Source: an uncultured Bacillota bacterium (GTDB lineage: Bacteria > Bacillota_I > Bacilli_A > RF39 > UBA660). From it: 64,000 nt of DNA. Shown in pieces: positions 31,669-62,077 of this stretch. The notes beneath the pieces were generated by a model. It worked only from the letters and a program-made list of their open reading frames with translations, was not told the DNA's origin and made no database searches. Position 1 is the stretch's first letter. Each line of letters starts with the position of its first letter. The DNA lies in assembly GCA_902492995.1 (NCBI GenBank), contig CABUNR010000002.1, forward strand, positions 22,561 through 86,560, written 5' to 3'. Both the position numbers and the translations under genes were made by a program.

Positions 31669-31744
31669 AACAAGAACATTTGACGATTTAGAAATATCAA
31701 TAATTTTGAAGAAATATATTTAAAAATAAAAGAGGTGGAAAATA

Positions 31745-37194: not shown

Positions 37195-38787
37195 GTGGTA
37201 CTTAGAAAACCATATAAATTTCTTATAAAGCATTTTAGAATGATACATTTAATTCTTGCAATATTAAGTGGTTATTTACTTACTAAAACAAATAGAACAC
37301 TAAGTTTTTTTAATGATTATTTAAATAATAATGAAACATTAATAGGAAATGGTACAGCTAGTGAATATTTTAGCGGTTTAATGACTTTATTTATAGTAAT
37401 AATTTTAATTGGTATAATTATAATTACGGTTATTATGAAAATGAAAGATAAACCTATAACTTTCTATATTATAACTTTAGTTGCATATATTTTTATTGGA
37501 GTAATATATGCATATGATAGTTCATTAATAAAACAACTTGAATTAAAAGTACTTGATATAAGAACAATTAAATTAGCTAGTGATTTAACACTGATTTGTT
37601 TTTTGGTTCAAACGTTTTCAACTATTATTTTATCTGTAAGAGCAGTAGGATTTGATTTAAAGAAATTTAATTTTGATAAAGATTTTGAATTAGAAATAGA
37701 TGAAAAAGATAATGAAGAATTTGAATTTGATGTTTCTATAGATAAAAATAAAATAAAAAGAAATACAAAAAAAAGTATAAGAAATTTAAAATATGCTTAT
37801 CATGAAAATAAATTTATTGTTAATATAGCTATAGTAGTTTTTATAGTTTTAATAGGTGGTATTATTTATTTGAATAAAGAAGTATATAATAAAATTTATA
37901 AAAAAGGTGAAATAGTTACTACAACACAATTTTCATATTTATTAAAAGATAGTTTTTTAGTAAATACTGATTATAGAAATAATAAGATAACAGATAATTA
38001 TATTGTTGTTGTAAGATTAAAAATCAAAAATAACTTAAAAGATACTATTAACTTAGAAACTGCAAGAGTTTTACTTCATATTGGTAAAGTTACATATAAT
38101 CCAACAACAAAATATAAAGATAATTTAATTGATTTAGGAACAGATATATCAAATAAAAAGTTAAAAAAAGATTTTGAAGAATATATAATAGCATTTGAAA
38201 TACCAAAAAAAGATATTAATAAAAAAATGACAATCAGTTATACAGATTTATCAAATAAAGTTTATACAACTAAACTAGATAATATTAAATTTGAAAATGG
38301 AACAAATGTGTCATCAAAACTAAATGAATATATAACTTTAAATAATGATATAATTAAAAATGTCAAATTTGAAATAACAGATTATAAAATAGATGACAAA
38401 GTAAAATCTACATACACATTTTGTGAAACAAAAGATAATTGTTATGAGTCATATGAGTATATTGTTCCAAGTTTAACAGATAATTATGAAAAAGCAATAT
38501 TAAGACTAGATGGTGATATAGATTTTAATAAACAAACTATTAAAAACTTTAATGATTTATCCGATTTTATAGAAAACTATGGTAGTATAACATATAAAAT
38601 AACAGATTCAAAAACAAAAAAACAAGAAGTTAAACAAATGAATACCAAGATAAAAGAAGTACTACCACAAAAAAGTGATGAATTAGGTACATATTATTTT
38701 GAAGTCTATAAAGAGATTAAAAATGCTGATGAAATAACTCTAGTTTTAAATATTAGAGGAAACATATATGAATACAAATTAAAATGA
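37195..38787 (+). CDS. Polytopic membrane protein with a large C-terminal extracytoplasmic domain, function unknown
   Basis: GTG start with RBS ggaggg; 4-5 TM helices in the first 220 aa, then a 300-aa K/N-rich soluble domain; monocistronic (own terminator). Confidence 0.4.
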   Translation: MVLRKPYKFLIKHFRMIHLILAILSGYLLTKTNRTLSFFNDYLNNNETLIGNGTASEYFSGLMTLFIVIILIGIIIITVIMKMKDKPITFYIITLVAYIFIGVIYAYDSSLIKQLELKVLDIRTIKLASDLTLICFLVQTFSTIILSVRAVGFDLKKFNFDKDFELEIDEKDNEEFEFDVSIDKNKIKRNTKKSIRNLKYAYHENKFIVNIAIVVFIVLIGGIIYLNKEVYNKIYKKGEIVTTTQFSYLLKDSFLVNTDYRNNKITDNYIVVVRLKIKNNLKDTINLETARVLLHIGKVTYNPTTKYKDNLIDLGTDISNKKLKKDFEEYIIAFEIPKKDINKKMTISYTDLSNKVYTTKLDNIKFENGTNVSSKLNEYITLNNDIIKNVKFEITDYKIDDKVKSTYTFCETKDNCYESYEYIVPSLTDNYEKAILRLDGDIDFNKQTIKNFNDLSDFIENYGSITYKITDSKTKKQEVKQMNTKIKEVLPQKSDELGTYYFEVYKEIKNADEITLVLNIRGNIYEYKLK

Positions 38788-38873: not shown

Positions 38874-41800
38874 ATGAAAAAAATGAAATCAATAATATTA
38901 ATATTACTAATTTCTTTTATTTTTATAGATAAAGAGAAAGCCTTTTATACTGCACAAGCAGGTACATCATGGAATAATGGTGGAGCAGGGTGCTCTGGAT
39001 ATAACTGTTATTCAAATATCAATAATGAAAAATTAATATTACAAGCAAGATTATATTACATAGATAATGCATCATTCACCCAAGTTGGAGAGACTTATTA
39101 TTTTGCTAATAGTGCTGCAAGTAATTATTTAAAAGAAAATAGAATAAATAATATATATATTTCTTCATTTGACAGTTCTTCAGATTATGAGAAAGCATAT
39201 AATAATTTAAAAAATTACTTTAATAATAGCGAAAATGCAAAAAATTATTTAAAAAAAGTAACTGGTACTCAAAATTATGAAGAAGTATTAACTAAAATTA
39301 GTGATAATAATAAAGGTTATAGAATTATGGTTGAACCAGCTCAGATCTATGGTAATCCAAGTTTTATGAATGGAAATATTGCACTTATGACACCAAAAGG
39401 ACTTGCAGCAGAACAAATAAAAACTGGAACAAATTGTAGTGAATGTAATAAAAAAGCTCAACAATTATATATGAGTACAAGTGAACTAGGAATAAGAGTA
39501 AATAATGACAAAAAACAAAATCCTAAGGATTACTGTGCATATATAGATACAGCTAAAATAGCAGATATAAAAATAGGATGTGGATATAACTTAATAAATA
39601 TAAGTAAATATATAAATGTCAAATGCTATAAAACGAGCGTTAATGGAACAGATGTAAAATGCACAAATTATGATGAAAATAATGGCGGAACATATGAAGA
39701 AGTGTATACTGAAAATTCCAGTTGTACAAATCAAGCAGATGCAGATAGATATAAATCATATGGAAAAAAATATAGTGAAAATGGAACATGCAAAATATAT
39801 TGTAAAGAAACAGGAAGTATAAGTTTACCAGGAAATGTATTAGCACCAGTAAAAAGAGGTTCTTATTTTGCGTGGCCAACAAAAAATTCAGATAAAGCAG
39901 GGCTTTATAAATTAACAATGACAACAAATTTAAAATGTAAAATAGTAGATACAGGAGGATCTACAACTCAAACAGCATCAGCATTTACAAGACAATGCCA
40001 AAGCAAATATACATCATATAATGATGATTGTAGGGCAACTGCAGTAACATCTAAAGTATGTCCAGAAGGAACTAAGCTTTGGAATGATGGAAAATGCTAT
40101 GTTATGAAAAATTCTAGTAATAGAACGCCAAGAACTAAAGAAGATCAATATGCTAATAAAATTTGTGATAGTACTAAAGGTTATGTGGAATATAGTGGTG
40201 GCTGTAGAAAAATAACATCATATAGCTATTCGTGCGGTAGGAATCAAACATTTCAAGGAAGGTATACTGGTACAATACCTGAGGGAGAACAAGTTTGCTG
40301 TCCAAGTGGATATGAACTAAATATTTATGAAACAACAAGGGCACACGCATGTAGAAAAAAGGCAAGTGTTGTTACAGGACATTCGTGCCCAGCAGGTGGA
40401 AATCTAAGCCCCGATAAGTCATATTGCGAAAAAAGTAAAACCTATTATTGCCCAAATGGTGGTACTTTAAATGGTACAACTTGTGTAAAAACTAATCAAA
40501 ATCAAAAAATTAAAGGTTGGACTTGTAAAATAGCACTTAGAAAATATAAATGTACTCAAGCAGCAAAATATGGATGTGAAAGTGGATGGGATTCAGTTGG
40601 TTCGTCATGCAGAAGAGAATCAACAACAGATACAAAACTTGATTGGGTTTATTCTCCACCAACTACAGCAAAAGCGACACCAAATTATGCGTATAGTGGT
40701 AAAACAGCATGTCCAACTGGATATTATGATAATGGCTCAAATTGTAAAAAAACAATTGATATAGCTCCTACATGTGATGGAAATGGAACACTTGATTGGG
40801 TAGGTGGAAAAAAAGTATGTGCAACATGCCCATCAGGTTATACATATATTGGTAATGGAATATGTAGAGAAAATAATTCTAAATCAGAAGTATGTCCATG
40901 GGATGATAAAAAAGAATATGTTTTAATAAATGGTGAATGCCATCATAGAACATCACAAACAAATTATACTTATTCTTGTAAAAATGATGAATATACAATA
41001 AGTTCTAATGAAAGAAGTTGTACTAAAAATTGTAATATAACTCCATTAAAAAATAGTGTTAATGAAATTTTAAAAAAAGAAGAAACCGGTATTACATTAA
41101 CTGGTGGAACAAATCAAAAAATAACAAATGAAACTTTAGATTCTGAGATTATTGATAAAAACTATAATGAAAATGATTTAACTTATAATAAAAAAACTTC
41201 ATTTTATATAAAAAGCAATAGAAACAGATATTATAATAAATTAACAGAACAAGTATTAAGTGAAAAAGTGAATTCAATTAATATTTTTGATAGACAACAA
41301 GGCGTTATATCAACATGGAAAAAAGATATAATAACAGAAAATAATTTAATAAAACATTATAATTTAGAATTAAAAATAACTAATTTTGGACTAAATAACC
41401 AATTTGGCTCTAAAATAACAAATTATGTATGTCATTATACATTAACAGATACACCAGATTGTATTTGTCCAGAGGATACATTAAATGGTGGCGCAGATGT
41501 TAAATATTTAGTAGAAAATGTATATAAAGATAAAATTACAAGAGAAAAAACATGCGCCTATTGGAAAGAAAAAATATGTGATAAACCAATAGGAAGAGTA
41601 TATTGTAAAGATACAACAAAAGATATAACTGATTGTGTGAAAGAACAAAACAAAACAGTTAATTTAGAAGATGCAATAAAAATATGTAAAATAGAGAATG
41701 GATGTGTAGATAATACATGCAAAGGTTCATGTACTGAACAACAGAAAAAATTAGATAATATTGCTTATAAAGTAACAAAATGTGATGGAAAATATTGTAA

Positions 41801-42416
41801 TTATTATGCGTACTGTGATGTAGAAAATAGAAAAACATCAGAAAGCTCAGAAGATTGTGTAAAAAAGGCTTTAGGAGTGGATGATATCATAGAAGCATTA
41901 AATAATGGAACATCAATAGACAAATTAGAAGCAGCAATAAGAAGCTGTAAAAATAAAATTTGTGCTTCAGATGAAAGAATTGTGTTTAGAATAATAGATT
42001 TAAAAAATCCATTTCCAGGAAAAGAACATAATAATACATTAAGTGGCTTTTCAAAAGAAGGAAAAAGTAGAACGCCAGGATATAATTGGAATTCAAAATT
42101 ACTAGTAAATAATAAAATAATAAATAATAGAGGAGTAAGCGATTATAAGCTTTATAGTAAAGAACCACTATATAAAATAACATTAACTCCAAGTAATATA
42201 AAGGCAATAAGAAATTATAATAAAAACAATAAATATGATAATCAAGGATTAAAATGTAGTAATAACAATACATCAAATTGTATAAGTTATTTCTTACATG
42301 ATAAAGTAGCAGGATTAGATACAGATATAAAAATAGAAGGTGTATCATCTTGCAAAAGTTTAAATGCATCATCAACAAAAGAGGATTTTGATGCATGTTA
42401 TAATTCAAATAATTAA
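38874..42416 (+). CDS. Giant cysteine-rich secreted protein 1 (1180 aa), paralog of 43879..46794
   Basis: Signal peptide; about 90 Cys in EGF-like spacing. Shares with the paralog a conserved N-terminal domain (LRLYY.D...GGTYY, KGYRI..EPA, GCGYN), an internal LTGGTN.KI...YVCHY..TD..C.CPE.T module and a C-terminal 150-aa domain (NDPFPGKEH...TPGYNWNSK...CY.SNN). Confidence 0.7.
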   Translation: MKKMKSIILILLISFIFIDKEKAFYTAQAGTSWNNGGAGCSGYNCYSNINNEKLILQARLYYIDNASFTQVGETYYFANSAASNYLKENRINNIYISSFDSSSDYEKAYNNLKNYFNNSENAKNYLKKVTGTQNYEEVLTKISDNNKGYRIMVEPAQIYGNPSFMNGNIALMTPKGLAAEQIKTGTNCSECNKKAQQLYMSTSELGIRVNNDKKQNPKDYCAYIDTAKIADIKIGCGYNLINISKYINVKCYKTSVNGTDVKCTNYDENNGGTYEEVYTENSSCTNQADADRYKSYGKKYSENGTCKIYCKETGSISLPGNVLAPVKRGSYFAWPTKNSDKAGLYKLTMTTNLKCKIVDTGGSTTQTASAFTRQCQSKYTSYNDDCRATAVTSKVCPEGTKLWNDGKCYVMKNSSNRTPRTKEDQYANKICDSTKGYVEYSGGCRKITSYSYSCGRNQTFQGRYTGTIPEGEQVCCPSGYELNIYETTRAHACRKKASVVTGHSCPAGGNLSPDKSYCEKSKTYYCPNGGTLNGTTCVKTNQNQKIKGWTCKIALRKYKCTQAAKYGCESGWDSVGSSCRRESTTDTKLDWVYSPPTTAKATPNYAYSGKTACPTGYYDNGSNCKKTIDIAPTCDGNGTLDWVGGKKVCATCPSGYTYIGNGICRENNSKSEVCPWDDKKEYVLINGECHHRTSQTNYTYSCKNDEYTISSNERSCTKNCNITPLKNSVNEILKKEETGITLTGGTNQKITNETLDSEIIDKNYNENDLTYNKKTSFYIKSNRNRYYNKLTEQVLSEKVNSINIFDRQQGVISTWKKDIITENNLIKHYNLELKITNFGLNNQFGSKITNYVCHYTLTDTPDCICPEDTLNGGADVKYLVENVYKDKITREKTCAYWKEKICDKPIGRVYCKDTTKDITDCVKEQNKTVNLEDAIKICKIENGCVDNTCKGSCTEQQKKLDNIAYKVTKCDGKYCNYYAYCDVENRKTSESSEDCVKKALGVDDIIEALNNGTSIDKLEAAIRSCKNKICASDERIVFRIIDLKNPFPGKEHNNTLSGFSKEGKSRTPGYNWNSKLLVNNKIINNRGVSDYKLYSKEPLYKITLTPSNIKAIRNYNKNNKYDNQGLKCSNNNTSNCISYFLHDKVAGLDTDIKIEGVSSCKSLNASSTKEDFDACYNSNN

Positions 42417-42501
42417 GTGTAAACATCTAGTTTATACTTTTTTATTGATTTACAAGCTAATTTATCCATGATATAATTTACTAAGAATAAAGGGTGATAT
42501 A

Positions 42502-43137
42502 ATGAAAAAGATAATCTTTTTAGTAACTCTGTTTTTAATTTCACTAGAAAGTGTACAAGCGTCATGTAGTGATGATGAAATAACTAGATTATCAAAACTT
42601 GCAAATAATGTAACAGCAAGTTATACATATAATGAAAAAACAAATAAATTTATGATCACATTTACAAATGTTACAGATGATTTATCAATAAATGATCTTA
42701 CTCATAATAAGTACTATAGTAATTACCCAGAAGTAACAATAAAAAATTTTAGTTCTGGTAAGCATAAATTTTATATTTATGCTAGTGATAAAAATTGCTA
42801 TGAAAGTGCATTATCATCAAAATATATAGAATTACCTTACTATAATAAATATTATGCATATAATGAATGCAAAAATTTTGAAGAGTATTCTTATTGTAAT
42901 AAATGGCTAAATTCTAATCTTTCATATGATATATGGAAACAAAAAGTAGATGAATATAATAAAGAAGTAAAAAAAGTAGAAGAAAAAGAAGTAAAAAATA
43001 CAAAAAGTATTTTATATATATTAAAAGACATAATTATTCAATTTTATGTAAGTTATTATTATATAATTTTGCCAACAATAATATCATCTTTATGCCTAAT
43101 AATATATCTTAAGAATAAAAGTGAAGAAATTATTTAA
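42502..43137 (+). CDS. Small secreted Cys-containing protein with C-terminal TM anchor (paralog of 43227..43865)
   Basis: Signal peptide ending VQAS-C, six conserved Cys, C-terminal hydrophobic helix plus KNKSEE tail; about 40 percent identical to the neighbouring ORF by eye. Confidence 0.6.
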   Translation: MKKIIFLVTLFLISLESVQASCSDDEITRLSKLANNVTASYTYNEKTNKFMITFTNVTDDLSINDLTHNKYYSNYPEVTIKNFSSGKHKFYIYASDKNCYESALSSKYIELPYYNKYYAYNECKNFEEYSYCNKWLNSNLSYDIWKQKVDEYNKEVKKVEEKEVKNTKSILYILKDIIIQFYVSYYYIILPTIISSLCLIIYLKNKSEEII

Positions 43138-43168
43138 AAGTATAAAATTATTTATACTTTTTTTATTT
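43137..43168 (+). terminator. Rho-independent terminator
   Basis: aaagtataaa-attatt-tatacttt followed by a T-run. Confidence 0.6.
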
Positions 43169-43226
43169 GCAATTAAAAAAAAGTATGCTATAATTGATAA
43201 TGAGAATAAAAGACTAAGGAGGATAT

Positions 43227-43865
43227 GTGATGAAAAAAAATATTTGTTTTTGTCTATTATTAATCCTTATTGTTTTGAGTCCCAAACATACAAAAGCTAG
43301 TTGCAACGATAGTGAAATAATAAGATTACAGAAATTAGCAAGTAATGTTAATATAACATATACAGCAAATGAAAATACACAAAAGTTTGATATTATAATT
43401 ACAAATTTAAAAAATGATTTGGTTTTAAAGGATGTTTATTCAAATAAAACTTATAATACTAATAGAGAAGTTACAATAAAAAATGCTTCTTCAGGTGCTC
43501 ATAGATTCTTGATATATGCAAAAGATAAAGAATGTACGAGTGATATATTAAAAGAAAAATATATAAAATTACCATTTTATAATTCTTATTATAAAAGAAG
43601 TGAATGTAAAGGCATAGAAAATTATGTATATTGTAGCAAATGGATGGATGTAAATTTAGATCAATCCGTTTATGAACAAAAAATAAATGAACATTTAAAC
43701 AATATGAAAAAAAATGAAGTTACGATAAAAGAAAATAATGGTAGTGGACTTTTAAAAAAAATAGTCGAGATATATACTAAATATTATTACATAATTATTC
43801 CAACGGCAATATTGATTATGTGCATAGCAATATATAAAATAAATAAAAAAGAAAAGTTAGTTTAG
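43227..43865 (+). CDS. Small secreted Cys-containing protein with C-terminal TM anchor (paralog of 42502..43137)
   Basis: Signal peptide ending TKAS-C, same Cys spacing and C-terminal anchor as the paralog. Confidence 0.6.
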   Translation: MMKKNICFCLLLILIVLSPKHTKASCNDSEIIRLQKLASNVNITYTANENTQKFDIIITNLKNDLVLKDVYSNKTYNTNREVTIKNASSGAHRFLIYAKDKECTSDILKEKYIKLPFYNSYYKRSECKGIENYVYCSKWMDVNLDQSVYEQKINEHLNNMKKNEVTIKENNGSGLLKKIVEIYTKYYYIIIPTAILIMCIAIYKINKKEKLV

Positions 43866-43878: not shown

Positions 43879-46794
43879 ATGAAAAAGAAATATTTATCTG
43901 TCTTGATTATACTTCTTTTATGTTTTACAGTAAAAGTAAAAGGTTGGTATAACGGTAATGGTGGATCCTTCCCTTCACCAAGTGGTTCAGCAACGTATTG
44001 CGAGTCATTTTTAAAACCTTGCCAATATGAAAATTATTCTTATTTTTCTTTGCAACTTAGATTATATTATTTTGATGGAAATGGTAATGCAGAACAAATA
44101 GGTGGTACATATTATGCAACAAATGAAAATGGATATAGTAAACTTTCAAAATTAGTGGATGCGAATAATATCATTAAAGTCGAAGGAATGAAAAATATTG
44201 GGCCAAAAGATCCTGATAGATATGATAAAGCAAGCGAGGAACTAAAAAAATTTTTGGGAGACACTGATGAGAATAAATTCACAAATGTAATAAACAATAA
44301 TTTAAGAGATTTTTTTAAAAAAGCTGCTGGAAATAATTTCGAATCAACATTAAATAAAGAAACAGAAAATGCAGATCCAAGCAACAAAAAACCAGCAAAA
44401 AAAGGTTATAGAATAATAATTGAACCAGCAATTTTATATATTAAAGCTCCATGGACTGGTGGTAATGGTGCTATCATTTCAGTAAAAGGTGCAGCAGTTA
44501 AAAGGCTTAACAATAAATATGTTTGGGGAATAGATAGCTTACCTATGGTAAAAGGTGACTCAACACAAGCCGAAAAAAATCAAACACCACAATCACAATT
44601 TTTATATACAACGTTTGATGATGTTGGAATAGCAAGAGCAGGAACAAATAAAGAAGAAGCAAAAAGACATTGCTCTAACATAAATCTTAATGAATTAGCT
44701 GACACAAAAAAAGGTTGTGGATATAACATTATAGATGTCGGAAAATTTATAAGTCACCCAGAATGTTATGATAAAAAAGTTTCTGGAGGAATAAAATGTA
44801 CAAATACAGATGAAAATAATATAGGAGATTTTAGTGAAACATATACAAAAAGGGAATGCACAAAAGAAGAAAAAGATACTAATACTAACACACAATATGG
44901 AAAAGAAATAAAATCAAATGAAAATTGTACATTATATTGTAAGGAATATTCTAAAGCAAGTTTTCCAGGCAGCCTAGATAAAATATTTGATATAAATAAT
45001 GTTACAGAAGGAACATATTTTACATGGATTGGACAACCTGGTAAAAAAGGCACTTTAATGAATATGTACATGACAACAAAATTAAGCTGTACTATTGTAG
45101 AAAAAGAAAATAAAAAATGTACTAGTGATGATATAAATAATCTAAAAAAAAGTGCTATAGATACAGTAAAAAATAAAAAGCTATCAGCATCATTAACTGG
45201 TGGTACAAACAAGAAAATAAAAGGAAAAAAATTAGATATTGTATCAACAACTACAACGGAGATAAATGAAATAAAAAAAGTTGAATTAAATAATGATGGT
45301 GTTAGTAATTTATTTGAAGTATCTAAAAAGTCATACTTTAAAATACCAGATGATGTTAATAGATTATATAATAGGGAAAGTGGAAATGTATTTGATGGCA
45401 CGGTAGCCATAGATGAAAGCATTTTTGATAGAAAAATGGGAGTTATATCATTAAGCAAAAATGATGATACCTCTAAAACATATGATTTGGAAATTTCAAA
45501 TGTAGATATTGGAAATGAAGAATTTAATAAATTAATTAGTACTTATGTATGTCATTATAGAATAACAGATTCATCGTGTGTTTGCCCTGAGGGAACAATT
45601 AAAGCTGGTGAACCTTTATATGATAAGTTGACTAATGGTAAAACATGCCCTGAATTACAAGCAACAGAATGTAATATATGCGAATGTGAAGAAGATTCAG
45701 ATTATCCTGGACAAGAAATATTACTAGGAGACGATGCTACAGCAGCAGCGTGTGAAAAGAAGAAAAATGAAATATGTTATGATAAAAATACATGCGATTA
45801 TAATGGAAAGAAAATTGATACATCAACCTGTGTAAAAGAACAAATGACTAAAGGATTAACTAAATCAGAGGCAAACATATATTGTAAACAACAATTATGC
45901 CCTGAATGTACTGATAAAAATGGAGATAAAGTTGACTTATCAGAATGTATATCAAAAGGAAATACATATAAAATTTGTGAATATAAATATTGTCCAAATA
46001 GTTTATGCCCAAATGGAATTTGTAATAGTTGTAGTAAAAATTGTTCTTGGAAATTGACAAAAAAATCAAAGACATCAATTGAATATTCAAAATCATGTTC
46101 AGATGGGAAAGATTGTGGAACTATTAAATTGTCATGCCCAGGTGGAAATAATAAAATGAATAATGCAGAAGATTGTGTGAAAAAACAATTAAATAGTAAA
46201 ATAAAAGGAAATACAATATCCACTGCATTAACTAGTGGATTAATAACAAATAATGATGTTCAAACTGCATTTAATGCATGTAGAAGTGAGGTATGCCCTT
46301 ATTCTGGAAGCAAAATAATATATAGACAAATAGATTTAAATGATCCATTTCCAGGAAAAGAACATAAAGGTACTAATACAAATGATGCTTTAAAATTATC
46401 AAACAATAATCAAAGCATTAGAACAAGAACACCAGGGTATAATTGGAATTCAAAAACAGTTATAGAATCAAAAATATTAAATGCAAGAGGTGCTAAAGGA
46501 TATGAACTATACAATAAAGATCCTTTATACATCATCAAATTGACACCAAGTACGATGAAAAAAATTAGAGCATATAATAAAAATAATAGTTATAATGATT
46601 TTAATTTAAAATGTACAAATAAAAATCAAAGTGCAGCATGTATAAGTAGATTTTTACATGAAAATACAGTTAATAATTTAAATGTAAAAGACTTTATTGT
46701 TTCATCATATGATGGAAAAAATAGTGTTAATGTATGTAACAATATGAACTATAATGAAGGCTCATTTAAATCATGCTATGAAAGTAATAATTAA
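43879..46794 (+). CDS. Giant cysteine-rich secreted protein 2 (971 aa), paralog of 38874..42416
   Basis: Signal peptide; same three conserved domains as protein 1 but with the LTGGTNKKI...YVCHY module placed before the single Cys-rich block. Confidence 0.7.
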   Translation: MKKKYLSVLIILLLCFTVKVKGWYNGNGGSFPSPSGSATYCESFLKPCQYENYSYFSLQLRLYYFDGNGNAEQIGGTYYATNENGYSKLSKLVDANNIIKVEGMKNIGPKDPDRYDKASEELKKFLGDTDENKFTNVINNNLRDFFKKAAGNNFESTLNKETENADPSNKKPAKKGYRIIIEPAILYIKAPWTGGNGAIISVKGAAVKRLNNKYVWGIDSLPMVKGDSTQAEKNQTPQSQFLYTTFDDVGIARAGTNKEEAKRHCSNINLNELADTKKGCGYNIIDVGKFISHPECYDKKVSGGIKCTNTDENNIGDFSETYTKRECTKEEKDTNTNTQYGKEIKSNENCTLYCKEYSKASFPGSLDKIFDINNVTEGTYFTWIGQPGKKGTLMNMYMTTKLSCTIVEKENKKCTSDDINNLKKSAIDTVKNKKLSASLTGGTNKKIKGKKLDIVSTTTTEINEIKKVELNNDGVSNLFEVSKKSYFKIPDDVNRLYNRESGNVFDGTVAIDESIFDRKMGVISLSKNDDTSKTYDLEISNVDIGNEEFNKLISTYVCHYRITDSSCVCPEGTIKAGEPLYDKLTNGKTCPELQATECNICECEEDSDYPGQEILLGDDATAAACEKKKNEICYDKNTCDYNGKKIDTSTCVKEQMTKGLTKSEANIYCKQQLCPECTDKNGDKVDLSECISKGNTYKICEYKYCPNSLCPNGICNSCSKNCSWKLTKKSKTSIEYSKSCSDGKDCGTIKLSCPGGNNKMNNAEDCVKKQLNSKIKGNTISTALTSGLITNNDVQTAFNACRSEVCPYSGSKIIYRQIDLNDPFPGKEHKGTNTNDALKLSNNNQSIRTRTPGYNWNSKTVIESKILNARGAKGYELYNKDPLYIIKLTPSTMKKIRAYNKNNSYNDFNLKCTNKNQSAACISRFLHENTVNNLNVKDFIVSSYDGKNSVNVCNNMNYNEGSFKSCYESNN

Positions 46795-46807: not shown

Positions 46808-47209
46808 GTGAAAGAATCGTTTTGGGGAGCAATGATAATATCATTTGGAGTTATAGCAATACTTTTTATATACTTCTTTCAAAATATTACAAATACTGAT
46901 CAACAAAATTATAACTTGCTTAAAGAAACAACAGAAGCAGCAATGTATGATTCAATTGATCAAGTTGAATATCAAAAGAATGGAAATATAAAAATTAATG
47001 CAGAAAAATTTATAGAAAATTTTATAAGAAGATATGCAGAAAATGCAAGCTTATCTAATACATATGTTATTGAAATATATCATATAAGTGAGTACCCTCC
47101 AAAGGTTAGCTTATTAGTTAAATCATCAGAACAAACAACAGCAACAGGAGAAGTAATGGATTTTCAAATAACAAATAGAATAGATGCAATATTAGAAACA
47201 CCATATTAA
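46808..47209 (+). CDS. TadE/pseudopilin-like membrane protein
   Basis: GTG start with RBS aggagg; N-terminal hydrophobic helix then a 100-aa soluble domain; first gene of the Tad-like operon. Confidence 0.35.
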   Translation: MKESFWGAMIISFGVIAILFIYFFQNITNTDQQNYNLLKETTEAAMYDSIDQVEYQKNGNIKINAEKFIENFIRRYAENASLSNTYVIEIYHISEYPPKVSLLVKSSEQTTATGEVMDFQITNRIDAILETPY

Positions 47210-47265
47210 TTTTGAAATTCAAAATTATATATAGATGCGAAATTAAGAAAGAAAGGGAGAAAGAT

Positions 47266-48108
47266 ATGAATAATTTTATGATTTCGTTACAAAAGTTTTT
47301 TAAAAACAAAAACACAGTTACTATAATAGGAGTAGTAGCAATAATATTAATCTTGTTCTTTGGATATCGTTATCAAATAAAGAAACAAGTAAGCCCTGTA
47401 ACTGGTATACCTGTTGCAGCACAAACAATTCAACCAAGAACTAAAATAACAGCAGATATGTTAGAGTATATCGATGTAGCACCTATTGTTTTACAAAAAG
47501 GTGAAGTAATAACAAATAAAAACCTTATAATTGGAAAATATAGTAATTATAATACTATAATTCCAAAGGGAAGTATGTTTTATAACGCTACAGTTATAAA
47601 TGAAGAAGAATTACCAGATTCAGCATTTATTGAAGTTGCTGATGGTGAAGTACCATATAACTTTCCAGTTACAATGGATTCAACATATGGAAATTCAATT
47701 TATCCAGGAAATTATATAGATATTTATATGAAAGCCGAAGGTAAAGATGGAAAATTAATGGTAGGAAAATTACTTGAGAATGTAAAAGTACTAGCAGTTA
47801 AAGATTCCGCAGGAAGACATGTTTTTGAAAATAGTGAAGAATCAAGAACACCAGCATACTTAATTTTTGGAGTAAAACCAGAAATAAATATACTACTTAG
47901 AAAAGCAAGTTATATGGGTAACTACTCAGTTGTTTTATTCCCAGTACCACATGGAGCAACAGTTGATGAAGATGGAACAACAACAGTTACATCAGAAACA
48001 TTAAAGAATTTCATAAATGTTAACACAGTAGCTAATGATGAAATTGAAGATAAAAAAGATACAACAACAAATACAACAACAACTACAAACACAAATAAAC
48101 AAGGATAA
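47266..48108 (+). CDS. CpaB/RcpC-like Flp pilus assembly protein (SAF domain)
   Basis: Start refined to ATG 47266 (RBS aagggag). N-terminal TM, then a SAF-like segment (TKITADMLEYIDVAPIVLQKGEV) and an RcpC-like segment (YPGNYIDIYM...LLENVKVLAVKD); Thr-rich C-terminal tail. Confidence 0.55.
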   Translation: MNNFMISLQKFFKNKNTVTIIGVVAIILILFFGYRYQIKKQVSPVTGIPVAAQTIQPRTKITADMLEYIDVAPIVLQKGEVITNKNLIIGKYSNYNTIIPKGSMFYNATVINEEELPDSAFIEVADGEVPYNFPVTMDSTYGNSIYPGNYIDIYMKAEGKDGKLMVGKLLENVKVLAVKDSAGRHVFENSEESRTPAYLIFGVKPEINILLRKASYMGNYSVVLFPVPHGATVDEDGTTTVTSETLKNFINVNTVANDEIEDKKDTTTNTTTTTNTNKQG

Positions 48109-48114
48109 TAATTA

Positions 48115-49539
48115 ATGAATGATTCAATGTTTTCCCAAATTGATTTTGGGGAACTAAAAAAGTATTTGGATGATGATGATATAACCGATATTTCATATAG
48201 TAATAATGGACAACTATTTGTAAAAACTTTATCAAAAGGTATTTACAGAGTTGAAAATGAAACTGTTAACAATGCATTTATGGAAAAATTAGCATTTCAA
48301 TGTGCTAATGTTATGGGTAAAACATTTAATATGGCTCATCCATTTCTAGATGCTGAAGGAGCAGAGTTACGTTTGAACTTTGTTCACGATTCGATAGCTA
48401 AAAATGGTATAGCTGTATTAATTCGTAAAACTCCAGCTAAGATAAGACTGGAAAAAGACAAATTATTAAAAGAGGATTATATCGAATTAGATATACATGA
48501 TTTTTTAATGAAATGTGTTTGGGGGCATTGTAATATAATTGTGTGTGGAGAAACTGGTTCAGGTAAAACCGAATTTGTTAAATATTTAGCAGCACATACA
48601 AAAGAAGATGAAAAATTAATTACAATAGAGGATACACTTGAATTACATTTGGATCGTATATTCCCACATAGGGATATAGTAGCAATGAAAACAAATAATA
48701 TTGCTTCATATAGCGATGTATTAGTAACTTGTATGAGACAGAATCCTAAATGGATTTTGCTTTCAGAGGTTCGTAGTGCAGAAGCAGTTCTTGCAATAAG
48801 AAACTCCATCTCATCAGGACACTATATTTTATCAACAATACATGCTGATAAAGCATCAAGTATACCTAACCGTATGTATAGTTTGCTTGAAACAAATCAA
48901 GATATTGATCAATTTTTAAAATCTGTTTATAGATATATTCAACTTGGAATATATATTAGAGGGTATCAAGATAAAAGAACAAAAAGATTTCATCGTGAAA
49001 TAGGAGAAGTTACAGAATTTTATGTAACCGAAGATAATAAGGCAGAATATAATACGATTTATAGAAAAACAACGACAGGAAAAATAGTAAGAAAAAATCC
49101 ATCTAAATATCTGATAGATTACTTAGATGCACAAGGAGTTACAATTTCAAAAGATGAAATAAAAGAAGGAGAAACAGACGGACCTAGGAAAAATATAGAA
49201 GATCAACCTTTAGATTCAAATACTTCACAAAATATTCAAAAAGGAAATATTCAAAATAATGTACAAGGTAATATTCCTAATAACATGATTAATAATCAAA
49301 CAAATATTAGACCTAATACAATAATTAATAATCAACAAAATAGACCAAATGTAGGAAGTAATCAAATGCCTGGTATGCCAAATAATATAAATAGTAATCA
49401 GCCAATGTATAATCAAGCAAATTATCAAAATAGACAAGTAATTAATAATTCACAAAATCAAGGTTATAATCAAATAAATTATAATACGAATAGACAAGTT
49501 GTTAATCCATATGGGGTTAACATGAATAATTCAGAATAA
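48115..49539 (+). CDS. CpaF/TadA-type (VirB11 superfamily) secretion ATPase with a 115-aa C-terminal N/Q-rich tail
   Basis: Walker A GETGSGKT, Asp box ITIEDTLEL, Walker B/His box KWILLSEVRSAEA...STIHA. The tail from residue 360 is more than half N plus Q. Confidence 0.85.
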   Translation: MNDSMFSQIDFGELKKYLDDDDITDISYSNNGQLFVKTLSKGIYRVENETVNNAFMEKLAFQCANVMGKTFNMAHPFLDAEGAELRLNFVHDSIAKNGIAVLIRKTPAKIRLEKDKLLKEDYIELDIHDFLMKCVWGHCNIIVCGETGSGKTEFVKYLAAHTKEDEKLITIEDTLELHLDRIFPHRDIVAMKTNNIASYSDVLVTCMRQNPKWILLSEVRSAEAVLAIRNSISSGHYILSTIHADKASSIPNRMYSLLETNQDIDQFLKSVYRYIQLGIYIRGYQDKRTKRFHREIGEVTEFYVTEDNKAEYNTIYRKTTTGKIVRKNPSKYLIDYLDAQGVTISKDEIKEGETDGPRKNIEDQPLDSNTSQNIQKGNIQNNVQGNIPNNMINNQTNIRPNTIINNQQNRPNVGSNQMPGMPNNINSNQPMYNQANYQNRQVINNSQNQGYNQINYNTNRQVVNPYGVNMNNSE

Positions 49540-49552
49540 AGGAGGTAAATTA

Positions 49553-50458
49553 ATGGAATATGTAGTTTTTCTAATTATTGCATTAGTAGCAGTATTTGTT
49601 ATTTCTTATCGAAATAGTAGCGGGGAAAAAGTATATAAATATATTTCAAATAATGCTGGAAATATTTATGAAAAATACTCTCCTTATTCATTTAAAGAAG
49701 TAAGAAGAAAAGTAAAAGAATTAGGACAAGATTATACAAAAAAACAATATTTAATACAAATTACAATATTTGCAGCAGGAGCATCAGTCATTACATATCT
49801 TTACTTTTATAGTTTAATTATTTCGATATTTTATGCAATAGTTGCTATAATGGTAATACCATATCTTCAATATCTTAGATGTAAAAGAATATATAGTGAA
49901 TTTATTTTTGAACAAATACAAGTTTATACAACAAACGTAATAATGGAATTCGCAACTACTCAAGCTTTTGTTAAAGCACTTGAAGGAGTATATGAATCAG
50001 GAGTTTTAGAAGATCCTGTAAGAAGCGATGTAAAATTAATGATTGATATGGCTTATGATAATGGTACAATTGATGAATCTATAAAATTTTTTAATAAAAA
50101 ATATGATTATTACATAGTAAAAAATACTCATCAATTGTTCTTACAAATAACAAATGAAGGTTCTAAAAACTCAAGCGATGCACTTGAAAATATGAGCCAA
50201 GATATAGATATGCTTGTTGAATCAGTGTATAGAGATAGAATAGATAGAGCCAATTTCCATAAAAAGTTTGTAAGATTTGGTATAGTTTTATATCTTATGG
50301 TTATGCTTGTTCAATTCTTATTAAGCCCAGAAAGCTATATTGAATTATTAAATAGTAATTTTACTGTTAAATTATTATTGCATTTAATAATAATAATTAA
50401 TAGTTATTTCTTACTAAATGGAGAAAAATTTTATAATGAGAATGTAGGTGCTGAATAA
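49553..50458 (+). CDS. TadB-like (GspF-domain) pilus assembly membrane protein
   Basis: 301 aa with N-terminal TM, a central pair of TMs and a C-terminal TM; position directly after the ATPase. Confidence 0.45.
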   Translation: MEYVVFLIIALVAVFVISYRNSSGEKVYKYISNNAGNIYEKYSPYSFKEVRRKVKELGQDYTKKQYLIQITIFAAGASVITYLYFYSLIISIFYAIVAIMVIPYLQYLRCKRIYSEFIFEQIQVYTTNVIMEFATTQAFVKALEGVYESGVLEDPVRSDVKLMIDMAYDNGTIDESIKFFNKKYDYYIVKNTHQLFLQITNEGSKNSSDALENMSQDIDMLVESVYRDRIDRANFHKKFVRFGIVLYLMVMLVQFLLSPESYIELLNSNFTVKLLLHLIIIINSYFLLNGEKFYNENVGAE

Positions 50459-51246
50459 TGGAATTTGTAGCAATAGCAGTAATAATGATTTTTGTTCTTA
50501 TCTATACAAATAGAATAGATGCAAAAAGATTTTTAGGTGATGTAGAACCATACTTTAAAATGTTAATGGAAGATGATTATGTATTTTTGCTTAATTTAAG
50601 ATATGGTAGTAAAGATTTAGATGTAACAAAATTATTTAATGCAAGAATAAAAAATGCAGCATTAGTATTTGTAGCAGCAATAATATATTTCTTATTTACA
50701 AATATATCATTTATAAATGTTTTAATTGCTTTTATATTAGCCATTGTAACATTTAAAATGCCTTATACAAAATTACAAAATTATTATAGAGCAAATCTTG
50801 CAAAAATTAATCAAATGTTACCTTATTATTTAAAAAGTTTGGAAATATTAATACAACATTATACAGTTCCAGTAGCACTTGCAAGAAGTATTGAAACAGC
50901 ACCAGATATATTTAAACCAGGATTAAAAAAATTAGTAGAAAAAATTGAAAGCGGTGATTCTAGTATTGATCCTTATATGGATTTTGCAAAAGAATATCCA
51001 GTTAAAGATTCAATGAGAATGATGAGACTTTTATATCGTTTAAGTTTAGGAGCTCAAGAAAACAAACAAGAACAATTAGTAATGTTTGCAAAAAACGTTT
51101 CAACATTACAAAATAAAATGCGTGAAGATAAATATAAAGATCGTCTTGATGCAATGGAAAAGAAAACAATGATGATGTTATTTGCAACAGGTGGTGGAAT
51201 TTTAGCGCTTTTAATGTTTGCAATGATGAATATGATGAGTATTTAA
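50458..51246 (+). CDS. TadC-like (GspF-domain) pilus assembly membrane protein
   Basis: 262 aa with the same topology class; start overlaps the TadB-like stop (taATG), indicating translational coupling. Confidence 0.45.
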   Translation: MEFVAIAVIMIFVLIYTNRIDAKRFLGDVEPYFKMLMEDDYVFLLNLRYGSKDLDVTKLFNARIKNAALVFVAAIIYFLFTNISFINVLIAFILAIVTFKMPYTKLQNYYRANLAKINQMLPYYLKSLEILIQHYTVPVALARSIETAPDIFKPGLKKLVEKIESGDSSIDPYMDFAKEYPVKDSMRMMRLLYRLSLGAQENKQEQLVMFAKNVSTLQNKMREDKYKDRLDAMEKKTMMMLFATGGGILALLMFAMMNMMSI

Positions 51247-51332
51247 CGACTACTTGACAAAAGATATTGATAAAAATACTAAAAAGAGTTATAATAAAAA
51301 TGTATATATATTAAAATAAGGGTGGTGAGATA

Positions 51333-51557
51333 ATGAAAGAAGCAGCAGGAGAAGCAAATATGACAGTAATAACAATTGTTTTAATAGCAGTAGTTTTAGC
51401 AGTTGGTACAGTAATTGTTAATGGTATGATGAGTAATACAAAAAATAGTTCTGCATGTTCTGCCTGTGGTGGTGTATGGAAAGGTGGAAAATGTGTAACA
51501 TCAAGTACAGATAATACCGTTATAGATTATAGTAGCTGTAAAGGTGAAATGAAGTAA
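51333..51557 (+). CDS. Flp/type-IV-pilin-like small protein with Cys-rich C-terminus
   Basis: 74 aa; charged leader MKEAAGEA then a hydrophobic helix NMTVITIVLIAVVLAVGTVIV, followed by a 35-aa tail with 4 Cys. Confidence 0.4.
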   Translation: MKEAAGEANMTVITIVLIAVVLAVGTVIVNGMMSNTKNSSACSACGGVWKGGKCVTSSTDNTVIDYSSCKGEMK

Positions 51558-51572
51558 TATGGAGGTGTCTAA

Positions 51573-51983
51573 ATGAAGCAAGGGATAGGATTTTCGGTTA
51601 CAATCAATATAATTGCTATATTTATAGTGGTTACCTTTGCTTTTTTAGTGACCACTTTAAATTATTATAAAACTTATAAAATTAATAATGCTATAACAAG
51701 CAGTATAGAAAAATATGAAGGTTATAATGATTTAGCCAAAACAGAAATAGAAGAAAAATTAACAAGTTTAGGTTACGTTAATGGAAGTGTTAAATGTAAG
51801 GATAATAATTTAAATAATAGTAAATTTAGTTATTGTATATACGAACTTGATTTAAATCAAAATACAGGAAAATTTAAATATAAAATTGTAACATATCTAA
51901 ATTTTAATATTCCAATTATTAATACAACTTTAAATCTTCCAGTAACAACAACTACAGAACCAATTTATTATTTTAGTGATTAG
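51573..51983 (+). CDS. TadE/pseudopilin-like protein
   Basis: 136 aa; short leader MKQGIG then a hydrophobic helix and a soluble domain with 2 Cys; paralogous architecture to the next ORF. Confidence 0.35.
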   Translation: MKQGIGFSVTINIIAIFIVVTFAFLVTTLNYYKTYKINNAITSSIEKYEGYNDLAKTEIEEKLTSLGYVNGSVKCKDNNLNNSKFSYCIYELDLNQNTGKFKYKIVTYLNFNIPIINTTLNLPVTTTTEPIYYFSD

Positions 51984-51994
51984 GGAGGTAATAT

Positions 51995-52423
51995 ATGAGA
52001 GAAGCTACAGGTAATGCGCTTTTAACTATGATGATGACCTCAATTATTGCTATAATAATGATTTTTTTTGTAGGATCACTTAGTTATTCAAAAGCATACA
52101 GATTGAAAAATTATATTATTAATGAAATAGAAGAAAATAAAACTTGGAATAAAAGTTTAAGCGATAATCTTGACTCTTATTTTAAGGAAGTAGGGTATAG
52201 TGTTAAAAGAAATAATAGTACATGCCCAACTTTAGATAATAATAACTGTGATTCAAGAAATTTGTATGATGGTGGATATGAGGCATGCATATATAGATGC
52301 GGTAATGGAAATAATGAGTATTATAAGGTTATTACATTTATGAAATTTGATTTTCCAGTAATTGGAAGTGCATTAAAATTTAAAGTACAGGGTGAAACAA
52401 AACCTTTTAATGATTTTAATTAA
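51995..52423 (+). CDS. TadE/pseudopilin-like protein
   Basis: 142 aa; MREATGNALLTMMMTSIIAIIMIFFVG leader/helix, soluble domain with 5 Cys. Confidence 0.35.
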   Translation: MREATGNALLTMMMTSIIAIIMIFFVGSLSYSKAYRLKNYIINEIEENKTWNKSLSDNLDSYFKEVGYSVKRNNSTCPTLDNNNCDSRNLYDGGYEACIYRCGNGNNEYYKVITFMKFDFPVIGSALKFKVQGETKPFNDFN

Positions 52424-52440
52424 AAGATTGGGGTGATAGT

Positions 52441-53421
52441 GTGAACGTAATTGTTTCAAATAAAAAACAAAAAATGCTTGAAAATTTAAATATTGAAATA
52501 ATAAAAGAATTAAATGGAGAATTTGATGTTGATGAAATAATTGATACATTTAAAAATTTCTTTTTTCAAAGAATGATATTAGATATAACAGCATTAAAAG
52601 ATTATAAAGATATCAGAACAATACAAAAGTTATCTTTATCTTTAGATATGAATAAAGTGATTTTGATTCTTGATGAAGATTCAAATACAACATCACCTGA
52701 ATTTATGTCTAAATTAATTTCAATTGGAATATATAATTTTACAACAAATATAGAAGGCGTTATGTACTTGTACAATAGTCCAAATACATATAGAGATGTA
52801 GCACACCTACATATTATAGACAACCCAACAGTAGTTACACAAACTGATACAAAAACAAATACTGTTTACGTAGACAGATATGTAGAAGCTCCACCTGTTA
52901 AAACAAATAGAGTAATTGGAATAAAAAATGTTACTAAGCAAACTGGTGCAACAACATTAACTTATATGATGAAAAAAATGCTTAAAAATTTATATTCAGT
53001 TGTTGCGATTGAAGTTGAAAAATCTGACTTTAGATTTTTTAATGATAGAGAACTTTTATCATCAACAAATAGTAGTATAGGAAATATGGTTAGTAAATAT
53101 AAAGATAAAGATGTAATTTTACTTGATGTAAATAATAGCGAAAATGCTTTGGGATTATGCGATGAGGTAATTTATTTAATAGAACCATCAATGGTAAAAT
53201 TAAATAGACTTATGATCATAAATCCAAAAATATTAAATGATATTAAAGGAAAAAAAGTAATATTAAATCAAAGTTTACTAAAACAAAAAGATGTAACTGA
53301 TTTTGAATATGAATCAGGATTGAAAATATTTTATAATATGCCACCTTTAGATGAAAGAGCAGATTATAGCAAAGAATTGGCAGAATTTTTAAATAAATTA
53401 GGTTTTACAAAAGTAAATTAG
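52441..53421 (+). CDS. TadZ/CpaE-like protein with a degenerate ParA/MinD-type nucleotide-binding loop
   Basis: GTG start; N-terminal 130-aa receiver-like domain, then VIGIKNVTKQTGATTLTYMM where a MinD/ParA P-loop (KGGVGKTT) would lie but without the signature Lys-Gly; D-rich segment LLDVNNSE. Confidence 0.4.
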   Translation: MNVIVSNKKQKMLENLNIEIIKELNGEFDVDEIIDTFKNFFFQRMILDITALKDYKDIRTIQKLSLSLDMNKVILILDEDSNTTSPEFMSKLISIGIYNFTTNIEGVMYLYNSPNTYRDVAHLHIIDNPTVVTQTDTKTNTVYVDRYVEAPPVKTNRVIGIKNVTKQTGATTLTYMMKKMLKNLYSVVAIEVEKSDFRFFNDRELLSSTNSSIGNMVSKYKDKDVILLDVNNSENALGLCDEVIYLIEPSMVKLNRLMIINPKILNDIKGKKVILNQSLLKQKDVTDFEYESGLKIFYNMPPLDERADYSKELAEFLNKLGFTKVN

Positions 53422-53519: not shown

Positions 53520-53882
53520 ATGATGAATATGGTAAACGTATTAGCTAACGTAAAATGTGGAACAATTGAAATAGATAGTATAATACCTGGAACAATTTCT
53601 ACATTTGTTACAATCTTAAAAATTGCAGTACCTTTAATTTTAATCGTTTTAGGAATGCTTGATTTAGCAAAAGCTGTAATGGCAAATGAAGAAAAAGAAA
53701 TGAAAGAAGCACAAAAGAAACTTATAAAAAGAATCATTTATGCAGTTGTTATTTTCTTCGTAGTAGCATTAGTACAATTTGTATTCTCACAATTATCTAA
53801 AGCCGATACTAATAATGCCAATGGTACATCAAATGCAACAGCTTGTATTTCATGTTTCATTAATGGAAATTGTGGTAGATAG
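53520..53882 (+). CDS. VirB2/TrbC-like conjugative pilin candidate
   Basis: 120 aa; two hydrophobic helices separated by a charged loop (LDLAKAVMANEEKEMKEAQKKLIKR). The pattern is nearly identical to the C-terminus of the next ORF; Cys-rich tail CISCFINGNCGR. Confidence 0.5.
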   Translation: MMNMVNVLANVKCGTIEIDSIIPGTISTFVTILKIAVPLILIVLGMLDLAKAVMANEEKEMKEAQKKLIKRIIYAVVIFFVVALVQFVFSQLSKADTNNANGTSNATACISCFINGNCGR

Positions 53883-53906
53883 TAAAAATACATTTAATAA
53901 AACAAT

Positions 53907-53936
53907 AAGAAAAATCTTTTCTATTGTTTTTTTTTA
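53907..53936 (+). terminator. Rho-independent terminator/attenuator
   Basis: agaaaa-atc-ttttct followed by a T-run; an extended -10 (tgttataat) follows at about 53934..53945. Confidence 0.45.
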
Positions 53937-53964
53937 TGTTATAATGTATTTGGTATAGTTTAAA

Positions 53965-55236: not shown

Positions 55237-55253
55237 GGATGGAGGTGATATAA

Positions 55254-57662: not shown

Positions 57663-57686
57663 AAAATAAAAAGTGGGTGAATAAAA

Positions 57687-60317: not shown

Positions 60318-60337
60318 AATAGTCTGGTGGTGGTATT

Positions 60338-62068: not shown

Positions 62069-62077
62069 AGTGATATA

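Follow-up and report, generated by a model that had tools for sequence, protein, structure and literature searches.

A small membrane protein, a cysteine-rich giant protein and a DUF5411 protein heading a Tad-like pilus and type IV secretion cluster in uncultured gut Bacilli

Introduction

What are two small, paralogous membrane proteins doing between two giant, cysteine-rich secreted proteins? The question is raised by a stretch of 64,000 nucleotides of DNA, called the window in the following, from an uncultured Bacillota bacterium (GTDB lineage Bacilli_A, RF39, UBA660; GenBank assembly GCA_902492995.1, contig CABUNR010000002.1, positions 22,561 to 86,560 of the forward strand). Here the genes are arranged in the order giant1, small1, small2, giant2, exactly as described in an initial annotation which had been made from the letters of the window. 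We report that the smalls and the giants belong to a three-gene module of a small, a Cys-rich giant and a DUF5411 protein. In very AT-rich gut Bacilli this module heads a Tad-like pilus locus which is followed by a monoderm-type type IV secretion system (T4SS).

Monoderm T4SSs are thought to depend on surface adhesins, not on pili, for contact, and hardly anything is known of the Tad-like loci of gut Firmicutes. A module tied to a pilus machine and to a T4SS provides testable candidates for the attachment to, and the choice of, targets by uncultured bacteria. The genomes of this group can be as small as 1.2 Mb, as in the metagenome-assembled genome (MAG) which carries locus L010.

A recurrent three-gene module

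Related loci were collected using three independent synteny anchors. These were proteins of the small family (P0009, P0014, P0028, P0166, P0175, P0133), DUF5411 proteins, and homologs of giant2 (P0180, P0195, P0191, P0188). The DUF5411 anchor, restricted to one genome per species, yielded 30 loci, all from MAGs of uncultured gut Bacilli. The labels of these MAGs are heterogeneous, i.e., 'Tenericutes', Acholeplasma sp. CAG:878, Ca. Faecisoma and Erysipelotrichaceae-like, and a few bins are mislabelled Muribaculaceae. All loci were re-annotated with hidden Markov models (HMMs) of the small family, the C-terminal domain of the giants, DUF5411 and a protein of 530 amino acids (aa). The six-frame HMM search was run on stop-to-stop fragments with --max.

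The recurrent order is 530-aa protein (P), small (S), giant (G) and DUF5411 protein (D), followed by the Tad-like pilus machine. About 30 distinct loci possess enough upstream sequence to be informative. A small is present in 28 of them and a giant in 28; in 26 the small gene is positioned immediately 5' of a giant gene. As to giant homologs which do without a small, there are two (L021 and L023) among approximately 28 giant loci; a consistent lack of smalls beside giant homologs was not observed. The lack of a small in L018 and of a giant in L027 was discounted because both coincide with scaffold gaps of 100 N.

The distance from the small to the giant gene is between -11 and +15 nucleotides (nt) in nearly all loci and 62 nt in one; overlaps of 4 nt are common. 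Larger negative values (L009, L017, L040) and the value of -11 (L038/L039) are artefacts of the rule by which the longest open reading frame (ORF) defines the start. In the database gene calls on record the distance is +4 nt in L038/L039 and -4 nt in L040. From the giant to the DUF5411 gene the distance is -8 to +17 nt.

The triad S-G-D also occurs in multiples and on its own. In L032 two complete triads stand in tandem ahead of the machinery. Triads away from ATPase and platform genes are present in L024, L026 and L029, all of which derive from one MAG (SIG205, SVAP01). Two of these three triads are near-duplicates, the smalls being 89% and the giants 95% identical. In the divergent loci L028 (10001-11140) and L030 (9083-10540) the DUF5411 domain resides within ORFs of 379 and 485 aa, compared with the usual 133-138 aa.

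Table 1. Genes and transcription signals of the module and of the pilus and secretion cluster in the window
Feature	Position	Strand	Properties
530-aa polytopic membrane protein	37195..38787	+	about 4 transmembrane helices and a C-terminal domain of ~300 aa
giant1	38874..42416	+	1180 aa, secreted, 62 Cys, six CPxG...C repeats, conserved C-terminal domain, 'a'-type
Terminator-like signal after giant1	42415..42447	+	AT-rich hairpin and T-run; -10.2 kcal/mol, z -3.8
Promoter-like site of small1	42449..42477	+	TTTACA-17-TATAAT with TG, 11/12 matches; best site in 37.0-47.4 kb
small1	42502..43137	+	211 aa, predicted type I membrane protein, 'a'-type paralog, putative partner of giant1 (ORF, alignment, AF2 model, trees)
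Terminator-like signal after small1	43136..43168	+	AT-rich hairpin (43136-43161) and T-run; -7.2 kcal/mol, z -3.5
Promoter-like site of small2/giant2	43166..43194	+	TTTGCA-17 or TTGCAA-16, then TATAAT, with TG; 10/12 matches
small2	43230..43865	+	211 aa, paralog, 'b'-type; first gene of the canonical small-giant-DUF5411 operon
giant2	43879..46794	+	971 aa, secreted, 43 Cys, conserved C-terminal domain, no LPXTG or transmembrane anchor, 'b'-type
DUF5411 protein	46808..47209	+	133 aa; Pfam PF17424, E 1e-48; third member of the triad
RcpC/CpaB-like protein	47212-48108	+	PF16976, 34.3 bits vs cut-off 28.8
CpaF/TadA-type ATPase	48115-49539	+	PF00437 T2SSE, E 6.5e-25, 88 bits vs cut-off 24.9
Two polytopic proteins in TadB/TadC position	49553-51246	+	301 and 262 aa; no Pfam or NCBIfam match
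Three pilin-like proteins	51333-52423	+	one of 74 aa; two pseudopilin-like paralogs of ~140 aa
326-aa protein	52441-53421	+	end of the Tad-like pilus block (47212..53421)
Monoderm-type T4SS	53520..64000	+	two T4SS_pilin-like proteins, TrbL/VirB6-like protein, VirB4-like ATPase, CHAP hydrolase, VirD4; runs off the window

Probable cognate pairing of smalls and giants

Two loci, L041 and L043, are of the type P-S-G-S-G-D, i.e., they contain two small-giant pairs in tandem. Neighbour-joining trees and summed bit scores were used to relate these proteins to those of the window. In both, small1 clusters with the first small of L041, L043 and L001, and giant1 with the first giant of the same three loci, the latter grouping being well supported. 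Correspondingly, small2 clusters with the second small of these loci as well as with the only small of L003 and that of L009, and giant2 with their second giant and the one giant of L003. Both trees split into an 'a' and a 'b' clade with the same loci in each. The relatives which have a single pair are of the b-type (L003 for small and giant, L009 for the small).

The matching trees suggest that the two families duplicated together and were kept or lost together. The tree topology is indicative of a co-inheritance of small1 with giant1 and of small2 with giant2. In the lineage of the window, which includes L001 and the near-identical L037, the order within the 'a' pair is swapped to giant1-small1, with the adjacency kept.

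The small proteins

Both small ORFs are located on the plus strand precisely where the initial annotation had put them (42502-43865). For small2 two starts are available, GTG at 43227, which gives 212 aa, and ATG at 43230, which gives 211 aa; the AAGGAGG is better spaced for the ATG. giant2 follows small2 at a distance of 13 nt. The presumed paralogy was confirmed by a pairwise alignment, in which small1 and small2 are 47% identical across the full length (E 3e-55). Signal peptide, C-terminal transmembrane (TM) anchor and a short Lys-rich tail had been recognised correctly. Both smalls start with a Lys-rich n-region, which is followed by a hydrophobic core, and cleavage is predicted at an AxA-type site, between VQA and SC in small1 and between TKA and SC in small2. 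At the C-termini a hydrophobic helix is followed by a tail of 8-10 residues including 2-3 Lys.

Two further properties which had been ascribed to the smalls, six conserved cysteines and a richness in N-x-S/T sequons, had to be revised. small1 possesses five Cys and small2 seven, two of which are part of the signal peptide. Five positions are common to both paralogs, and four (C22, C99, C123 and C132, small1 numbering) are invariant among 58 unique family members. The fifth common Cys, located in the TM helix, occurs in 31% of the 58. Composition alone predicts 2.5-2.9 sequons per small; the 5 which each of them has do not exceed this significantly (p 0.16 and 0.09), and they recur in no more than 4-14 of 34 homologs. 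Glycosylation of the smalls was therefore rejected, the number of sequons being compositional and their conservation poor. A function as thiol oxidoreductase was likewise rejected because the smalls have no CxxC and a beta-sandwich fold instead of a thioredoxin fold.

How widespread are such proteins? A word-indexed search retrieved 34 homologs of 192-217 aa, all of them unnamed. With a family profile, a search of 1.84 billion cluster representatives resulted in 1988 matches at E<=1e-3 and 1467 at E<=1e-10; of 150 listed matches nearly all are 200-250 aa long. Judged by sequence, the smalls are a large, length-conserved and undescribed family. Three motifs are conserved in it, LPYYNKYY, YCxKW and YYYIILP, the last of them within the TM helix.

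An AlphaFold2 (AF2) model of small1 was generated from the alignment of the 34 sequences and has a mean predicted local distance difference test score (pLDDT) of 84.8. It comprises a signal helix (residues 1-21), a short helix (24-35), a seven-strand beta-sandwich (about 38-111) and a Cys-containing loop. In the C-terminal part a long charged helix (142-184), which resembles a stalk, leads into the TM helix (186-210). The predicted topology is that of a type I membrane protein, with the ectodomain outside, followed by stalk and TM helix, and a short basic tail on the inner side. In the model the beta-sandwich of the ectodomain appears Ig-like.

Sequence databases provide no name for the smalls. 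Neither Pfam nor NCBIfam contains a family for small1 or small2 at E<=0.01, the PDB sequence search was without a match, and a scan of all 34 members at E<=1 returned scattered sub-threshold matches only. One of these, the Pfam family PilM (PF07419, a protein of the R64 thin pilus), was obtained for 2 of the 34 members (E 0.025); its score of 14.9 bits is below the cut-off of 25, and the aligned stretch takes in the signal peptide. A Foldseek comparison of the small model with the PDB gave no match better than E 0.005 and only generic sandwiches of the immunoglobulin (Ig) and fibronectin type III (FN3) kind. The smalls are not lipoproteins by motif: a lipobox ([LVI][ASTVI][GAS]C) is absent from the first 40 residues, and the invariant Cys is at position +2 after the AxA-type site, not at +1 as lipoproteins require.

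The giant proteins

giant1 and giant2 are paralogs which align in their N- and C-terminal thirds. Both start with a signal peptide; LPXTG motif, lipobox and TM anchor were all absent in motif and TM scans, and an LPXTG-like motif is missing from small1 and small2 as well. The giants terminate with ...CYNSNN and ...CYESNN. The C-terminal domain is common to all giants and defines the giant family, although it has no well-conserved stretch of 7-10 residues. No match to the giants was obtained in Pfam, NCBIfam or among PDB sequences. The model of giant2 has a pLDDT of 70.9, with values <50 over much of the conserved C-terminal domain, and a Foldseek search with it against the PDB had no match at E<=0.001.

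The six CPxG...C repeats of giant1 are contained in a middle insert of ~300 aa (residues about 395-665), which is absent from giant2 and is lineage-specific. Across the loci examined most giants have ~27-62 Cys, with the exception of L019_gB which has 10. Such a Cys content is unusual for exoproteins of strict anaerobes; it may reflect disulfides or metal sites.

Transcription signals around the smalls

According to the initial annotation each small gene has a promoter-like sequence of its own. Indeed, the two best-placed sigma-70-like sites in the region 37.0-47.4 kb are directly upstream of small1 and small2 (Table 1), although the overall number of promoter-like sites in this AT-rich region is no higher than in shuffles. 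The terminator which had been proposed after small1 (43137..43168) exists as an AT-rich, terminator-like hairpin with a T-run, yet it was missed by a G+C-based terminator scan, which found none at the ends of giant1 or small1. In L037 (GCA_964308555.1, CAYBFU010000043.1), the giant2 of which is 99% identical, two insertion sequence (IS) elements (IS110 family and DDE_Tnp_1; 5984-9352) are inserted exactly between small1 and small2, just past the terminator-like hairpin of small1. This insertion site fits two separate transcription units which meet at the small1/small2 junction.

Pilus and secretion genes

Downstream of the module the pilus block begins (Table 1). Its ATPase is of the CpaF/TadA type found in Tad/Flp (type IVc) pilus systems. 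The RcpC/CpaB-like protein, which exceeds the Pfam cut-off, scored 41.5 bits against TIGR03177 (pilus_cpaB; cut-off 71). The two pseudopilin-like proteins of ~140 aa are paralogous (hhalign probability 100%). The DUF5411 protein starts with MKESFWG, then a hydrophobic helix, and is pilin-like in this respect. It shares with the three pilin-like proteins the N-terminus M-K/R-E/Q-x-x-(x)-G, which is followed by ~20 hydrophobic residues. The Flp processing motif G/xxxxEY is absent from the pilin-like N-termini of the locus.

The T4SS which follows has the VirB4, VirD4, VirB6-like and wall hydrolase components of a monoderm conjugation-type system. The VirB4-like protein is above the cut-offs for AAA_10 and P-loop_TraG and just below that for CagE_TrbE_VirB (20.1 vs 21 bits). 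VirD4 matches T4SS-DNA_transf (E 1.6e-37), the VirB6-like protein TrbL_4 (31.9 bits, cut-off 27) and the hydrolase CHAP (E 2.7e-10). Relaxase or integrase genes were not seen within the window. T4SS genes are located 3' of the pilus genes in 15 other loci (L003, L004, L007, L009, L011, L013, L014, L015, L018, L020, L021, L025, L027, L028 and L031), in fact wherever enough downstream sequence is present. As the arrangement recurs in these loci, pilus and T4SS, classified by their sequences, are a conserved supercluster of uncultured gut Bacilli.

The 530-aa protein matched nothing in Pfam, NCBIfam or the PDB. Two Asp-containing motifs, LDIR and GFD[LV]KK, are positioned near its TM helices and are kept between the window and L016. 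Since no prepilin peptidase was identified in the locus, a role of the 530-aa protein as a peptidase may be considered as a speculative lead.

What may the smalls do?

The giants carry a signal peptide and possess neither LPXTG nor lipobox nor TM anchor; this suggests that they need a partner. The initial annotation had offered cognate anchors, chaperones or receptors as roles of the smalls. The part of this claim which persists is that of extracytoplasmic, C-terminally tethered partners of the giants, considering the adjacency in 26 of ~30 loci and the mirrored trees; any of the three roles may apply. In our view the best single description is that small1 and small2 are membrane-tethered docks or assembly partners which present a giant adhesin to the pilus, a proposal to which we would give an even chance on the basis of sequences and models.

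How could this operate? The giant would be exported by Sec without carrying an anchor. The disulfide-stabilised, Ig-like ectodomain of the small, raised on its helical stalk by ~40 residues above the membrane, would capture the newly exported giant and hold it beside the pilus platform. The giant might then be passed on to a pilus tip primed by the DUF5411 protein or else be displayed on the cell surface. It would act as a variable adhesin which contacts the target cell in the service of the adjacent T4SS. Within the membrane, the conserved motif YYYIILP may contact helices of pilins or of the platform.

Several observations weigh against such a dock. L011 and L016 are of the type P-S-D, i.e., they have a small and a DUF5411 protein and no giant, and L021 and L023 have the order G-D and a full machine with a giant and no small. 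Nor is the pairing strictly 1:1, as L006 and L010 (S-G-G-D) and L019 (G-S-G-D) demonstrate. In the window small1 is located after giant1 as a separate transcription unit, so that translational coupling is not available there. The bootstrap for the 'a' clade of the smalls is weak, with the caveat that printed bootstrap values may have been misassigned after rerooting. It is by its N-terminus alone that the DUF5411 protein qualifies as pilin-like. No prepilin peptidase or peptidase_A24 was identified among the ORFs scanned in the window. Finally, in the Foldseek comparison with the PDB, known adhesins, chaperones and pilus proteins were not matched by the model of the small or by that of the giant.

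Taking the dock further, small, giant and DUF5411 protein might represent an exchangeable tip-adhesin cassette. In it the small would be a type I 'loader' for one giant, and the Tad-like pilus would serve a chromosomally fixed T4SS of gut Bacilli with reduced genomes. We put this forward tentatively, as a possibility which has less in its favour than the dock itself. If true, the smalls would represent a kind of pilus accessory which had not been known before, and Gram-positives would use a type IV filament with swappable adhesins in choosing partners for the transfer of DNA or protein.

Could the small instead be a core structural subunit of the Tad-like machine, such as an extracytoplasmic alignment or stator element which contacts the 530-aa protein and the platform? 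The adjacency to the giant would then simply reflect operon organisation. To some degree this is favoured by the giant-less loci L011 and L016, in which the small is accompanied by the 530-aa and DUF5411 proteins. A single small suffices in the two-giant loci L006, L010 and L019. Furthermore, conservation within the family is highest at the TM motif YYYIILP, suggestive of a fixed membrane partner, and in most machinery-linked loci the 530-aa gene is directly 5' of the small gene at a distance of 9-72 nt. The smalls, however, duplicate and diverge with the giants and not with the machinery. Triads exist away from ATPase and platform genes (L024, L026, L029), a triad was duplicated as a unit (L032), and L021 and L023 have a full machine without a small. 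On balance we regard a core subunit as unlikely.

Somewhat less probable still is a small which serves as a permanent surface stalk and displays the giant as a non-pilus adhesin in the manner of PrgB/PrgC, the pilus being uninvolved in presentation. The absence of any anchor in the giant and the stalk-like helix plus TM helix in the AF2 model of the small would be compatible with this. So would the position of the module at the 5' end of a cluster which ends in a monoderm T4SS, given that a dependence of monoderm T4SSs on surface adhesins has been described (PMC12102498). Yet the DUF5411 protein with its pilin-like N-terminus is an invariant third member of the module, close behind the giant, and is hard to explain without a pilus. 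Moreover, we estimate that a stalk of ~40 residues is probably too short to traverse a Gram-positive wall.

Highly improbable, finally, are exclusion or immunity factors against self-targeting by the giant or the T4SS, like the entry-exclusion proteins of conjugative elements: small membrane proteins which diversify with a large secreted partner next to a T4SS do resemble immunity/toxin pairs, but the small gene is 5' of its partner, whereas immunity genes usually follow the toxin gene, the C-terminal domain of the giants is conserved and not polymorphic, no toxin domain emerged in the Pfam and NCBIfam scans, which did not extend to PADLOC or PHROGs for any of the four proteins, and the smalls show good conservation, a fixed length and four invariant Cys.

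Comparison with known systems

For a membrane-tethered dock of a pilus adhesin the tip adhesins PilY1/PilC are an obvious point of reference. They are Sec-exported, non-pilin proteins of ~1000 aa which are encoded beside pilin-like genes, e.g., in fimU-pilVWXY1 operons. The giants are alike in size (~1000 aa), predicted Sec export, non-pilin character, their position beside pilin-like genes and in that they can be duplicated into several cassettes; in function, giant and DUF5411 protein together would be comparable to PilY1 with its minor pilins. They differ in having no match in sequence or fold: the beta-propeller of PilY1/Neisseria_PilC was not detected in Pfam, in the PDB or by Foldseek with the giant2 model, the moderate pLDDT of which was given above. 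In addition, the machine here is Tad-like and resides in a monoderm. PilY1 systems are not known to include a counterpart of the small, i.e., a conserved membrane partner of type I.

The second reference is the Tad/Flp system (tadZABC, rcpC/cpaB, flp, tadE/F). The locus shares with it the PF00437 ATPase and resembles it in a putative RcpC/CpaB protein (PF16976), two polytopic proteins in the TadB/TadC position, a short pilin-like protein and two paralogous pseudopilin-like proteins. It deviates by the lack of Pfam matches for platform proteins, pilins and TadZ, of the G/xxxxEY motif and of a visible prepilin peptidase. The 530-aa protein, the small, the giant and DUF5411 are additional conserved genes.

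The nearest described system is an operon of 'membrane machinery' with CpaF, PilC and DUF5411, the existence of which in Roseburia, Ruminococcus and Eubacterium Miller et al. (2022, PMC9523054) predicted by means of gene-context embeddings. It too is an uncharacterised system of gut Firmicutes, similar to type IV pili and type II secretion systems (T2SS), and combines a DUF5411 protein with a CpaF ATPase. The genes listed for it code for 24-478 aa and include no pair of a 205-250 aa protein and a giant; small family, giants and a linked T4SS are not described there.

Large surface adhesins are also encoded with a T4SS itself. Large adhesins and a smaller surface protein, PrgA/PrgB/PrgC, are specified at the 5' end of the enterococcal T4SS operon of pCF10. 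The common feature is the location of surface-protein genes at the 5' end of a monoderm T4SS cluster. The differences are that the Prg proteins are LPXTG-anchored by sortase, whereas here LPXTG is absent and the small is TM-anchored, and that in our loci a pilus machine is inserted between the adhesin genes and the T4SS. PrgB is cited in PMC12102498.

Cooperation of type IV pili with T4SSs has been reported for R64, the archaeal Ups/Ced system and Patescibacteria (PMC12102498). IncI1 R64 specifies a thin type IV pilus next to its T4SS, and the contact with the target cell is set by variable PilV adhesins (PMC12102498). In overall function the cluster described here is comparable. Yet R64 is a plasmid of diderms, its pilus is of type IVb, the adhesin is itself a genuine minor pilin which a shufflon diversifies, and the sole link of the small to R64 is the sub-threshold Pfam match to PilM.

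The arrangement first noticed in the window is real and goes beyond chance. The smalls are best regarded as a new, unnamed family, the members of which would be accessories in a novel version of a supercluster of type IV filament and T4SS. Three unannotated families can now be defined and could be added to family databases, i.e., the small family (~2,000 cluster representatives), the domain at the C-terminus of the giants and the 530-aa protein.

Chromosomal setting and flanking genes

A plasmid or phage origin of the cluster was rejected, as PLSDB had no match at the DNA or protein level and IMG/VR no relative. Considering the lack of plasmid and viral relatives, the circular MAG contig of 1.2 Mb which harbours L010 and the housekeeping and sporulation genes in the flanks (spoIID, dacB, spmA/B, NAD salvage), the cluster looks chromosomal and vertically kept, with mobility still possible. 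The G+C content of the window is 19-29%, and a sharp island boundary is not apparent.

Between spoIID and dacB a block for the salvage and biosynthesis of nicotinamide adenine dinucleotide (NAD) is present in the window (25304-32566), which is absent at the same position in L001. It comprises an isochorismatase-type nicotinamidase, NAPRTase, NUDIX, NAD synthase, PRPP synthetase, an NMN adenylyltransferase-like protein and an NrtR-type regulator. The T4SS region further encodes a 222-aa protein (62078-62746) with a signal peptide and a C-terminal TM helix which is outside the small family. A paralog of it is encoded beside spoIID, in the window at 23992-24735 and in L001 at 1346-2062 (jackhmmer E 3e-71 and 1e-62).

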